A DNA stretch of 49,153 nt from Candidatus Limnocylindrales bacterium (GCA_052038965.1 JBQGDI010000111.1:1-49153); one strand, 5' to 3'. Positions 5,418 to 13,828 are shown, numbered from the stretch's first letter. The notes: generated by a model not told the origin, from the sequence alone. Translations and numbers: made by a program.

Positions 5418-5492
5418 GGGCCCGTAGCTCAATGGCAGAGCAGCTGACTCTTAATCAGCGGGTTGAAGGTTCAAGTCCTTCCGGGCTCACCA
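5418..5492 (+). tRNA. tRNA-Lys, anticodon CUU, with encoded CCA
   Basis: Cloverleaf folded by hand. Acceptor GGGCCCG/CGGGCTC (one G-U), D arm GCTC-AATGGCA-GAGC, anticodon arm GCTGA-CTCTTAA-TCAGC (anticodon CTT at 5450-5452), 5-nt variable loop, T arm GAAGG-TTCAAGT-CCTTC, discriminator A, CCA at 5490-5492. Confidence 0.93.
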
Positions 5493-5506
5493 CCCTCACG
5501 ATACGC

Positions 5507-5541
5507 ACGACCCCCACCGATCTGGTGGGGTCGTTCTGCTT
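5507..5541 (+). terminator. Hairpin plus T-rich tail downstream of tRNA-Lys
   Basis: ACGACCCC(C)ACC / GGTGGGGTCGT forms an 11-bp stem with a one-base bulge and a 5-nt loop, followed by TCTGCTT. Confidence 0.5.
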
Positions 5542-5558
5542 CGCGCCCGATCAGCCCG

Positions 5559-5566
5559 GGTAGACT
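5559..5566 (+). promoter_or_regulatory. Candidate extended -10 box (GGTAGACT) for the sulfotransferase-like gene row
   Basis: It repeats the tRNA promoter-like 9-mer and lies about 60 nt upstream of GTG 5628, which has its own GGAGG. Confidence 0.3.
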
Positions 5567-5627
5567 CTCGGGAGACCTGGCTCGACCCCCGGGGTGCGCC
5601 CGGGCGCGCGCCCACGCCGGAGGTGAG

Positions 5628-11408: not shown

Positions 11409-11431
11409 CGCGGGACGAGGTCCACCCGGCG

Positions 11432-11441
11432 ATGATACCTT
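11432..11441. promoter_or_regulatory. AT-containing patch with back-to-back candidate -10 boxes for the divergent permease-cysC and cysDN transcripts
   Basis: TATCAT on the minus strand (11437-11432) and TACCTT on the plus strand (11436-11441) form the only TANNNT-type patch in the 108-nt divergent spacer. Confidence 0.25.
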
Positions 11442-11516
11442 CGGGTCCCGAGATCACCGCCGCGCGACGAGCCCGGTCGCGCCCCCGGACGACGACCAGA
11501 GGTCCGACTCGACCCC

Positions 11517-12419
11517 TTGAAATCGCATGTCCTGAGCCATCTCCGCAGCCTCGAGGCGGAGAGCATCTACATCTTCCGCGAGGTCGCGGCCGAGATGCAG
11601 CGGCCATGCCTGCTGTTCTCCGGCGGCAAGGACTCGACGATCATGCTGGCCATCGCCCGGAAGGCCTTCGCCCCGGCCCGGATCCCGTTTCCGATCATGC
11701 ACGTCGACACCGGGCTGAACTTCCCCGAGGTCCTGGCGTACCGCGACAAGTGGGTCGCCGACCTCGGCCTGAAGCTGATCGTCGCCTCGGTCCCGGACGC
11801 GATCGAGCGGGGTCTCGTCGCCGAGGAGGCGGGCGGTTCGCGCAATCGGATCCAGACACCCGTCCTCCTCGACGCGATCGAGCAGAACGGCTTCGACGCG
11901 CTGTTCGGCGGGGCGCGCCGCGACGAGGAGAAGGCCCGGGCCAAGGAGCGGGTCTTCTCGTTCCGCGACGAGTTCGGCCAGTGGGACCCCAAGAACCAGC
12001 GGCCGGAGCTGTGGGGCCTCTTCAACACCCGGGTCCAGCCTGGCCAGCACATCCGCGTCTTCCCGCTCTCGAACTGGACCGAGCTCGACGTTTGGACGTA
12101 CATCGCGGAGTTCGAGGTCGAGGTCGCGCCGCTGTACCTGGCGGCCGAGCGCGACGTGATCGAGCGTGGCGGGATGCTGTACGCGGTCAACGAGTTCACG
12201 CCGGCGCGTGACGGCGAGACGCCGATGCGCAAGAAGGTCCGCTACCGGACGATCGGCGACGCCAACCTGACCGCGGCCGTGGAGTCCGAGGCGGACACGA
12301 TGGAGAAGGTCCTCGCGGAGGTGGCCGCCGCCCGGATCACCGAGCGTGGCGCGACCCGCGGCGATGACAAGTTCAGCGAGACGGCCATGGAAGACCGCAA
12401 GCGCGAGGGCTACTTCTGA
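11517..12419 (+). CDS. cysD: Sulfate adenylyltransferase subunit 2
   Basis: It contains 'HLRSLEAESIYIFREV', the PP-loop 'FSGGKDS' and 'RDEEKARAKERVFSFRD'. TTG start. The stop overlaps the cysN ATG (TGATG). Confidence 0.92.
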   Translation: MKSHVLSHLRSLEAESIYIFREVAAEMQRPCLLFSGGKDSTIMLAIARKAFAPARIPFPIMHVDTGLNFPEVLAYRDKWVADLGLKLIVASVPDAIERGLVAEEAGGSRNRIQTPVLLDAIEQNGFDALFGGARRDEEKARAKERVFSFRDEFGQWDPKNQRPELWGLFNTRVQPGQHIRVFPLSNWTELDVWTYIAEFEVEVAPLYLAAERDVIERGGMLYAVNEFTPARDGETPMRKKVRYRTIGDANLTAAVESEADTMEKVLAEVAAARITERGATRGDDKFSETAMEDRKREGYF

Positions 12420-13828
12420 TGGCCGACGAGACGCGCGCGGAGCGGCCCGGCCACACCATCGAGGAGACGCCCGCGGACACCCCGGACGCCGCCCCGGAGC
12501 CGCCCGAGCCCGTCGCGCCGTGGGATGCCGCGAGAACCCAGACCTTCGAGCGCCGGATGGCGGCCTCGGATCTCCTCCGCCTGGCGACCGCGGGCTCCGT
12601 CGACGACGGCAAGTCGACCCTGATCGGCCGCCTGCTGTTCGACTCCAAGACGCTGTTCATCGACCAGCTCGCGGCGGTCGAACGAGTGTCGCGCGAGCGG
12701 GGCCACGACTTCACCGACCTGGCGCTGCTGACCGACGGGCTCCGCGCCGAGCGGGAGCAGGGCATCACGATCGACGTCGCGTACCGCTTCTTCGCCACGC
12801 CGAAGCGGCGGTTCATCATCGCCGACACGCCCGGGCACATCCAGTACACCCGGAACATGGTCACCGGCGCCTCGACCGCCGACGTCGCCGTCCTGCTCCT
12901 CGATGCGCGTCGCGGCATCACCGAGCAGAGCCGCCGGCATGCCTTCATCGCCTCGCTCCTGGGCGTGCCGCACATCCTGCTGTGCGTCAACAAGATGGAC
13001 CTCGTCGACTGGTCGGAGGACGCCTTCGAATCGATCCGCGAGGAGTTCGTGGACTTCGCGACCCGTCTCCGGGTCCGCGACCTGTCGTTTATCCCGATCT
13101 CGGCCCTGAAGGGCGACAACGTCGTCGAACGCTCCACGAACATGCCCTGGTACGACGGCTTGCCGCTGCTGCGGCACCTGGAGCGGCTGTACGTCGCGTC
13201 GGACCGGAACCTCGTCGACGTCCGGTTCCCGGTCCAGTACGTCATCCGGCCACAGTCCAACACCGTCATCGACTACCGCGGCTACGCCGGGACGGTCGCC
13301 TCGGGGGTGCTGAAGCCGGGCGACCCGGTGCTCGTCCTGCCGTCCGGGTTCGAGACCAGGATCGCGTCGATCGAGACCGCCGACGGGCCGGTCGACGAGG
13401 CCTACCCGCCGATGGCCGTCACCATCCAGCTGGACGACCACGTCGATGTCGGTCGCGGCGACATGCTCTGCCGGCCGCACAACGTCCCGACGGTCGCCCA
13501 GGAGATCGACGCCCAGGTCTGCTGGATGGACGAGGCGGCCCAGCTGACGAGGGGCGCGAAGTACGCCATCAAGCACACCACCCGCTGGGCCCGCGCGCTT
13601 GTCCGCGACATCGCCTATCGGATCGACGTCAACACCCTCCACCGCGTCGAGGGCGTGGATGGGCTGTCGCTCAACGAGATCGGGCGCGTGCAGCTCCGGA
13701 CGACGCAGCCGCTGTTCGTCGACACGTACGCCGAGAACCGCCAGACGGGCTCGTTCATCCTCGTCAACGAGCAGACGAACAAGACGGTCGCCGCCGGGGT
13801 CATCGGCCGGGCCACGATCGCGGGCTAG
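12419..13828 (+). CDS. cysN: Sulfate adenylyltransferase subunit 1 (GTPase), without a fused APS-kinase domain
   Basis: GTPase motifs 'GSVDDGKSTLIGRLL', 'DTPGH' and 'NKMD'. At 469 aa there is no C-terminal CysC domain. It is translationally coupled to cysD. Confidence 0.92.
   Translation: MADETRAERPGHTIEETPADTPDAAPEPPEPVAPWDAARTQTFERRMAASDLLRLATAGSVDDGKSTLIGRLLFDSKTLFIDQLAAVERVSRERGHDFTDLALLTDGLRAEREQGITIDVAYRFFATPKRRFIIADTPGHIQYTRNMVTGASTADVAVLLLDARRGITEQSRRHAFIASLLGVPHILLCVNKMDLVDWSEDAFESIREEFVDFATRLRVRDLSFIPISALKGDNVVERSTNMPWYDGLPLLRHLERLYVASDRNLVDVRFPVQYVIRPQSNTVIDYRGYAGTVASGVLKPGDPVLVLPSGFETRIASIETADGPVDEAYPPMAVTIQLDDHVDVGRGDMLCRPHNVPTVAQEIDAQVCWMDEAAQLTRGAKYAIKHTTRWARALVRDIAYRIDVNTLHRVEGVDGLSLNEIGRVQLRTTQPLFVDTYAENRQTGSFILVNEQTNKTVAAGVIGRATIAG

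Follow-up and report, generated by a model that had tools for sequence, protein, structure and literature searches.

In rhizobia (NodP/NodQ with NodH) and in mycobacteria (CysDNC with Stf), ATP sulfurylase and adenosine 5'-phosphosulfate (APS) kinase supply 3'-phosphoadenosine 5'-phosphosulfate (PAPS) for the sulfation of envelope or signal glycolipids; in mycobacteria the stf genes lie apart from cysDNC. Among bacteria, sulfation is considered an uncommon modification of envelope polymers. Sulfated polysaccharides of bacteria have been stated to be known only from cyanobacteria (PMC13390465, 2026), and sulfated capsules have been reported in marine Gammaproteobacteria (PMC11766843, PMC11641403). 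In the case of saccharomicin, Sam10, a glycan sulfotransferase of an actinomycete, is paired with a cluster-encoded APS kinase, Sam35, which boosts the PAPS supply (PMC13291958). Here, we describe a locus at positions 5418-13828 of a 49,153-nucleotide stretch of DNA from a Candidatus Limnocylindrales bacterium (GCA_052038965.1 JBQGDI010000111.1:1-49153; this whole stretch is referred to as the window), in which three tandem genes for sulfotransferase-like paralogs lie beside genes for PAPS synthesis. On balance, the locus is probably a sulfation module whose acceptor is most likely a cell-envelope glycopolymer.

Clusters that combine a PAPS supply with a sulfotransferase are already known (NodPQ-NodH, CysDNC-Stf, Sam35-Sam10, and the sulfated-capsule clusters), and the present locus resembles the rhizobial and mycobacterial systems in having a dedicated or co-opted PAPS supply for its predicted sulfotransferases. 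However, the NodH and Stf0 families differ from the paralogs, the Nod and mycobacterial systems contain no permease-kinase fusion, and their acceptors are known. Sam10 also has a 5'-phosphosulfate-binding (PSB) motif, the Arg/Ser pair of the 3'-phosphate-binding (3'-PB) motif, and a pathway-specific CysC as a partner, but it is smaller (as judged by residue numbering), its PSB residues are R13, S16, and S17, its Arg/Ser pair is R108/S117, its substrate is a natural-product oligosaccharide, and neither cysDN nor a transporter is present in its cluster; Sam10 was rejected as a member of the paralog family on size and motifs (PMC13291958). What is new here is a family that fails curated profiles yet agrees with sulfotransferases in predicted fold and motifs, a fusion of a permease with APS kinase, the linkage of the family to PAPS genes in Chloroflexota, and its association with teichoic-acid genes in two phyla.

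The three paralogs are encoded in tandem on the plus strand. Paralog 1 (5628-6890, 420 aa) contains HIGPQKTGTT, SAEAF, and LRPLARILPSQWQQ; paralog 2 (6982-8250, 422 aa), whose numbering is used for all family motifs, carries K24, E100, R129, and S137; and paralog 3 (8266-9915, 549 aa) contains HIGPPKTGTS, SSEFF, and LRPLDRLIPSQWQQ. Their pairwise identity is 46-50% over 300-390 aa (E 1e-84 to 1e-112), and a tblastn search finds exactly three copies in the window. For paralog 1, the start at 5628 gives an N-terminus that agrees with those of the other two; an alternative start at 5463 would overlap the tRNA-Lys gene upstream. A database protein of 420 aa (P0134) is identical to paralog 1 over 320 aligned residues. 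A preliminary description of this DNA, made by inspection of the letters alone, had placed the tRNA-Lys, the three paralogs, the permease-kinase fusion, and cysD-cysN where ARAGORN, open reading frame (ORF), and Pfam/NCBIfam analyses now locate them, and the motifs that it listed, HIGPxKTGT[TS]xLQ and LRPLxxx[LI]PSQWQQYVQ with Arg-x7-Ser spacing, are indeed common to all three proteins, R129-x7-S137 being correct.

Across 98 diverse family members, P22, K24, T25 to T28 (G26 included), S98, E100, R129, P130, S137, and Q140/141 are conserved in at least 90% of sequences, and all three window paralogs keep these residues. In the model of paralog 2 (see below), the PSB loop P-x-K-x-G-T-[TS] follows strand 16-20, and the R129-x7-S137 pair falls on a strand-to-helix junction, at the end of strand 122-128 and the start of helix 131-144. 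E100 precedes R129 by 29 residues, and the spacing from E-K(TPAYF) to R in 3-OST-1 is identical by sequence comparison. Whereas 3-OSTs carry a catalytic E-x-H-x-x-D motif, the paralog family has the invariant S-x-E100 instead, in which E100 is a candidate catalytic base. Paralog 3 has an extra segment of ~130 aa (aa ~360-520) that separates the catalytic domain from the conserved basic tail, and two related loci, L081 and L082, encode a protein of the same length (549 aa) at the equivalent position. Longer members of the family show two or three matched stretches, and the extra segment of paralog 3 may partly repeat the C-terminal module.

The fold of the paralogs was modeled with AlphaFold2, both for full-length paralog 2 (predicted local distance difference test score, pLDDT, 84; predicted template modeling score, pTM, 0.80) and for aa 1-320 of paralog 1 with a 98-sequence alignment (pLDDT 94, pTM 0.91). 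In Foldseek searches against the PDB, the top match of both models is 3RNL (E ~6e-5, probability 1.0, template modeling (TM) score on target 0.63-0.66), which is named in the PDB as a sulfotransferase from Alicyclobacillus acidocaldarius and is itself a 3-OST-1 homolog by sequence search (E 1e-6). The paralog 2 model also matches 3-OST-1/5 (probability 0.99-1.0, TM on target 0.52-0.61), and TPST1 and cytosolic SULTs are retrieved by both models at poorer scores and lower TM; P-loop NTPases, namely signal recognition particle (SRP) GTPases and F1-ATPase subunits, are listed as well, at TM 0.13-0.3. With the heparan-sulfate (HS) sulfotransferases (3-OST-1/3/5, the NDST1 sulfotransferase domain) and the uncharacterised bacterial 3RNL, the paralogs have in common the alpha/beta fold as judged by Foldseek, a K-[TG]-G-T PSB loop and an LR(D/P)...LPS/LS 3'-PB motif in the same register, and a strand-helix 'VxVD...FLxL' after the 3'-PB motif. 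In contrast to those enzymes, the paralogs have ~22 extra residues between the PSB loop and the central strand, and the family is extended by a helical region (aa 200-320) and by a C-terminal tail, basic and amphipathic, with no transmembrane helix and no significant profile relationship.

The same register is recovered by hhalign, whose insignificant alignment is nonetheless colinear with 3-OST-1: the family stretch THVVLTLR129PLAAILPS137QWQQ puts R129/S137 on the 3'-PB Arg/Ser of 3-OST-1, and VTVIVAD..VFESLVGL is aligned to IHIVDGD..VERFLKL. In addition, a local match links the PSB loop of paralog 1 to residues 49-64, at the N-terminal end of the NDST1 sulfotransferase-domain chain, a stretch that corresponds to the PSB loop IIGVRKGGT of 3-OST-1. 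The only Pfam match among the paralogs is a sub-threshold one to Sulfotransfer_4 in paralog 2 (E 0.096), and sub-threshold matches to this profile in the same N-terminal region are seen in 14 of 37 family members and in three of the 10 longer members scanned. The family is large, with more than 1,800 matches in a word-index search and, in an exhaustive search of 1.84 billion representatives of 50%-identity clusters, 12,615 matches at E<=1e-3 and 1,452 at E<=1e-30. Its members have no precomputed Pfam domain and most are named 'hypothetical protein', and several Streptomyces homologs bear the UniRef name 'Sulfotransferase family protein'. We conclude that the paralogs belong to a distinct, uncharacterised family with a predicted sulfotransferase fold, nearest to the heparan-sulfate-type enzymes, and it is very likely that they are PAPS-dependent sulfotransferases. 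This assignment is made because of the fold search, the motif register, and the conserved gene context, not because of a significant profile match. The preliminary description had called them sulfotransferases outside any subfamily that could be named, and both parts of that statement agree with these results.

The gene context was collected by contig look-ups, by a scan of GTDB representative genomes (75 loci), and by tblastn with the window proteins, and a locus was counted as informative if its sequence extended at least 6 kb to each side of the paralogs. PAPS genes are carried by 38 of 47 Chloroflexota loci, and CysC, CysD, and CysN are found together in 24 of the 29 informative ones. CysQ, the phosphatase for 3'-phosphoadenosine 5'-phosphate (PAP) and a marker of PAPS turnover, is present in 27 of the 33 loci having CysC, CysD, and CysN. 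The order in Chloroflexota is fixed, consisting of one to five paralogs (+), CysC (-), TauE (-), usually CysQ (+), and CysD and CysN (+), and the median gap between the last paralog and CysC is ~100 nt. The adjacency of paralogs and CysC spans divergent Chloroflexota (45-55% identity), rearrangements, and copy numbers from 1 to 5, and this near-obligate linkage to PAPS genes is a new feature. The self-contained PAPS supply proposed in the preliminary description is thereby supported, with the addition that the relatives usually include CysQ.

The window represents a subtype in which TauE and CysC are fused and CysQ is not adjacent. The fusion is called as a single gene in L081-L083 and is apparent from adjacent tblastn matches in L014, L019, L030, L048, and L058; elsewhere in Chloroflexota, TauE and CysC are two adjacent, translationally coupled genes. 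The closest long contigs, L081-L083, have the same core as the window, comprising the paralogs, the fusion, CysD, CysN, and RidA. L081 and L082 contain three paralogs each, with a CysN ~90% identical and a paralog 2 ~71% identical to those of the window, and L083 contains five paralogs, among which the paralog 2 ortholog is 67% identical. The paralog genes of L081 overlap by 4 nt, which suggests an operon. The unfused CysC proteins (for example at 11219-12592 (-) in L001, with equivalents in L002, L004, and others) are 439-511 aa long, and their kinase is confined to the last ~170 aa; their N-terminal extension of ~275 aa has no Pfam match and, judged by eye, resembles a degenerate ATP-sulfurylase N-terminal region.

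In the window, the gene that follows the paralogs (9930-11408, minus strand) encodes the fusion of a TauE/SafE (TSUP) permease with the APS kinase CysC. The permease part (nt 10623-11390, minus strand) matches PF01925 over aa 7-262 (E 2.3e-43; 149 bits vs. a cutoff of 32.6), and the CysC part (nt 10011-10469, minus strand) matches Pfam APS_kinase over aa 314-466 (E 3.1e-51) and TIGR00455 with 176 bits vs. a cutoff of 138.7. CysD, the small subunit of ATP sulfurylase (11517-12419, plus strand), matches NF003587 (E 3e-132) and TIGR02039 (422 bits), and its stop is overlapped by the start of cysN (12419-13828, plus strand). CysN is the GTPase subunit (TIGR02034, 562 bits) without a fused kinase, and it matches the bifunctional model NF004035 over no more than positions 13-433 of 632. 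The permease-kinase gene and cysD are divergent, and the region that separates them (11409-11516) is presumed, from its position, to hold promoters; it contains no sigma-70 consensus match, promoter and terminator scans were uninformative, and Rfam reports no riboswitch or other RNA element controlling the locus. We have high confidence that this PAPS-supply module is functionally coupled to the paralogs.

A TauE homolog (TK06_RS10770 / Ac3H11_578) complements sulfate uptake in E. coli cysA (PMC11535334). The permease of the fusion is likewise of the TauE/TSUP type and genetically tied to sulfate activation genes; unlike that homolog, it is fused to APS kinase and stands in a sulfation context, and its substrate is predicted. 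By analogy, the permease domain would import sulfate, and the precedent fits a role in feeding the pathway (PMC11535334). CysD/CysN would then make APS from sulfate and the fused CysC domain would turn APS into PAPS, as indicated by their family assignments, and the three paralogs would pass the sulfuryl group on to one or more acceptors, at hydroxyl or amino groups, a chemistry suggested by fold, motifs, and context. The acceptor would be a teichoic-acid-type envelope glycopolymer, or sugars added to it by TarS-like glycosyltransferases, and several paralogs would serve different positions or units of it. PAP would be removed by a CysQ encoded outside the window, in which tblastn finds none.

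The lead to the acceptor comes from homologs elsewhere. In Firmicutes, wall teichoic acids are tailored by decorating enzymes such as TarS, which are encoded beside tarIJ- and tagF/tarL-type genes; to our knowledge, sulfation is not among the known teichoic-acid decorations. Homologs of the paralogs are similarly fused to, or adjoin, TarS-like GT2 proteins, whereas the window has no tar/tag genes. Among Actinomycetota loci with gene calls, an IspD+SDR fusion (TarI/TarJ-like, for CDP-ribitol synthesis) adjoins the family in 13 of 26, and Glyphos_transf (TagF/TarL-like) does so in 10 of 26. Seven Streptomyces loci (L047, L054, L065, L071, L072, L078, and L079; family match at ~10000-11150) usually have the order obg, family gene, tarIJ-like gene, a gene for a 716-aa protein with a weak Glyphos_transf match, usually a tagF-like gene, proB, and proA; the homolog adjoins or lies near obg, and the tarIJ-like gene is always next. 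In four Chloroflexota loci, a GT2 with a TarS linker domain (E 7e-29) lies between paralogs, and TarS-like GT2 homologs are present in 15 loci of both phyla. A family member in a Chloroflexota metagenome-assembled genome (L040) stands beside TagF-like, TarIJ-like, and GT2 genes. Furthermore, the compact TarIJ/TagF-like cluster L080 encodes P0196 (981 aa; 7956-10901), a fusion of the family domain with GT2 and TarS_linker whose neighbours are a tarIJ-like gene, a double-domain member, and TagF-like genes. Tandem double-domain members of ~780-850 aa include P0121-P0124, among the matches listed, and another at L080 5477-7888; together with the copy numbers of 1-5, these proteins suggest that several members act on one substrate.

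Teichoic-type genes are the only recurrent non-sulfur neighbours of the family and, among the 10 longer members scanned, its only fusion partner. Because of these contexts and the domain fusion, the family is best read as decorating wall glycopolymers of the polyol-phosphate type or their sugar substituents; for the Limnocylindrales organism itself, a wall-glycopolymer acceptor is a tentative proposal drawn by analogy. The preliminary description held that the acceptor could not be deduced, which is too strong in view of these homologs, although the window itself gives no pointer: teichoic-acid genes (a TagF/TarL-type polymerase, TarIJ-type genes, and a TarS-type glycosyltransferase) and other glycosyltransferases were absent from the window in Pfam scans and homolog comparison. 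These scans took in nearly all window ORFs of at least 100 aa supported by G+C content at third codon positions (GC3). The locus is not classed as a teichoic-acid locus because no tar/tag-type genes lie within the window, and the pointer to teichoic-acid-type glycopolymers comes from the homolog contexts and the domain fusion. Our literature search found no report of sulfated teichoic acids, nor any on this enzyme family. In S. coelicolor, SCO2594, the neighbour of obg (SCO2595), is a candidate member of the family and may offer an experimental handle. In a SCO2594::Tn5062 mutant, both cell-wall synthesis and the phosphate-dependent resistance to vancomycin are described as affected (PMC6001138, PMC7581861). 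The Actinoplanes proteins WpsB and WpsH were rejected as members, as both belong to InterPro-recognised families.

A number of points weigh against a sulfation module of this kind. The paralogs reach no Pfam or NCBIfam cutoff, the best Sulfotransfer_4 score in the family being 20.9 bits vs. a cutoff of 22.8; phmmer and two family hidden Markov models retrieved no sulfotransferase from the PDB sequences; hhalign, run with two family alignments on a PDB-verified alignment of 3-OSTs, gave a probability below 1%; the Foldseek TM-scores are moderate and the root-mean-square deviations large; the paralogs have nothing equivalent to the catalytic Glu of HS sulfotransferases (E-x-H-F-F-D); a dedicated use of PAPS for sulfation is putative, as it is judged from the 49-kb window; and the window has no glycopolymer genes, so that the acceptor is read from homologs in other genomes. 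The paralogs might be another P-loop-related enzyme, such as a kinase or phosphotransferase, acting on polyol-phosphate polymers, with the adjacency to cysDNC reflecting shared regulation or a sulfur/phosphate economy. The missing profile match, the SRP GTPases and F1-ATPase subunits in the Foldseek list, and the Actinomycetota homologs, for which tblastn finds PAPS genes within 10 kb in none of 27 loci (Streptomyces, Aeromicrobium, Nocardioidaceae, and Micromonosporaceae included), would all accord with such an enzyme. We nevertheless judge it very improbable: the loop is PxKTGT[TS], unlike the Walker A motif GxxxxGK[ST], the TM-scores are 0.13-0.3 for NTPases vs. 0.5-0.66 for sulfotransferases, the Arg-x7-Ser register agrees with 3-OST-1, and in 24 of 29 Chloroflexota loci the paralogs are closely linked to CysC and CysQ, the enzymes that make PAPS and remove PAP. 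The preliminary description had raised the constant company of cysDN and cysC as a matter to check, and had named homologs routinely lacking PAPS-synthesis genes as evidence that would count against it. Such company is the rule in Chloroflexota and does not extend to Actinomycetota, where homologs without adjacent PAPS genes are indeed routine; the enzymology is not refuted by this, as those genomes may carry PAPS genes at other sites.

It is also conceivable, if just as improbable, that cysD, cysN, and the permease-cysC gene form an ordinary assimilatory set with a PAPS reductase elsewhere, the paralogs being incidental and using the general PAPS pool. Operons of cysDNC apart from cysH are common, for instance in E. 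coli, and a TauE-family transporter has served assimilatory sulfate uptake (PMC11535334). Against an assimilatory set, the adjacency of paralogs and CysC survives the divergence, rearrangement, and change of copy number described above, and, as the preliminary description had noted for the window, reductive genes are missing: the Pfam scans found neither a PAPS/APS reductase nor a sulfite reductase in the 49 kb, and in seven related Chloroflexota loci with Pfam-labelled genes there is none either, PAPS_reduct marking only CysD. More weight, though still on the unlikely side, belongs to the same enzymology directed at a different acceptor, which could be a lipid (giving a sulfolipid or sulfoglycolipid), a small metabolite, or glycans carried by a surface or secreted protein, for example the PT-rich protein of 1162 aa encoded downstream of cysN. 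The window lacks teichoic-acid and glycosyltransferase genes, most Chloroflexota loci hold only sulfotransferase and PAPS genes, the basic amphipathic tail of the paralogs could bind membranes, and an ortholog of the giant PT-rich protein lies within a few kb of the L081 core, with a homolog adjoining the L030 core, on different sides. On the other hand, no lipid, polyketide synthase, or peptide-precursor gene recurs beside the family in the 75 loci, the recurrent non-sulfur neighbours and the sole fusion partner among the 10 longer members scanned are teichoic-type, and the giant protein is not near the cluster in L083, L014, and L048. A wall-type glycopolymer remains the favoured acceptor.

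The PT-rich secreted or surface-type protein (13852-17340, minus strand; Pfam) has an N-terminal hydrophobic segment, a PT-rich linker, and weak Ig-like/fn3 matches, and its N-terminal ~580 aa have no Pfam match. Its ortholog in L081 (2791-6180) is 64% identical, and L030 contains a homolog (6701-9682); in both loci the gene lies between tRNA-Lys and the sulfotransferase genes, whereas in the window it comes after cysN. Upstream of the paralogs, a SorA/SoxC-like molybdoenzyme is encoded at 2924-4129 (plus strand; Pfam), and a gene of this type is near the paralogs only in the window and in L049 (8950-9745 (-), immediately upstream), not in the other 70-odd loci; a SorA-like sulfite dehydrogenase was accordingly rejected as a core part of the system, and a role in providing sulfate from sulfite is a speculative candidate. 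The preliminary description had regarded links to both flanking genes as speculative. The SorA-like enzyme is indeed not conserved at the locus; the giant protein recurs near it in three of six Limnocylindria-type loci and could be either a variable neighbour or a candidate sulfated glycoprotein.

The tRNA-Lys(CTT) gene at 5418-5492 (plus strand; ARAGORN, Rfam 71 bits) precedes the paralogs, and the same tRNA-Lys(CTT) is found upstream of them in L014, L030, L048, L081, and L083. It is therefore an ancestral neighbour in the lineage and not the mark of an island junction or integration scar. A genomic island at tRNA-Lys was ruled out on the uniform G+C content of the window (~72%) and on the retention of both the tRNA linkage and the flanks in relatives, with GNAT/SDR upstream and RidA/CarAB downstream; GNAT and SDR genes are also among the further flanking genes of the window. 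Between tRNA-Lys and the first sulfotransferase gene there are 51 nt in L083 (6012-6137), 135 nt in the window, and several kb in L081 (2677-8745) and L030 (4485-9980), where the interval holds the giant protein and, in L081, an S8 peptidase as well; this variable interval looks like a local hotspot of gene insertion. In addition, carA is apparently split in the window into two plus-strand ORFs (29977-30294 and 30319-31218), the first covering CPSase_sm_chain profile positions 1-50 and the second positions 64-126 and the GATase domain, and it is undivided, at 392-398 aa, in L081 and L083. The split may represent a frameshift, a pseudogene, or an assembly error.

Finally, a wider proposition can be made: a very large and largely unannotated family (~12,600 representatives at E<=1e-3, with no entry in Pfam or NCBIfam) would, in a modification so far undescribed, sulfate teichoic-acid-type wall glycopolymers, or TarS-added sugars, in Streptomyces, other Actinomycetota, and soil and freshwater Chloroflexota, and Limnocylindria-like bacteria would have acquired their own importer-APS kinase, ATP sulfurylase, and PAP phosphatase. 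Taken as a whole, this proposition is possible but doubtful. A testable gene set is available in the gene intervening between obg and the tarIJ-like gene of the seven Streptomyces loci, together with the self-sufficient Chloroflexota module, and the natural permease-APS kinase fusion may serve PAPS engineering. If the family is active as predicted, sulfotransferases would be routine in the wall-polymer loci of Streptomyces and in abundant uncultured Chloroflexota, which would affect the charge of the wall, interactions with phages and antibiotics, phosphate sparing, and the cycling of sulfur.

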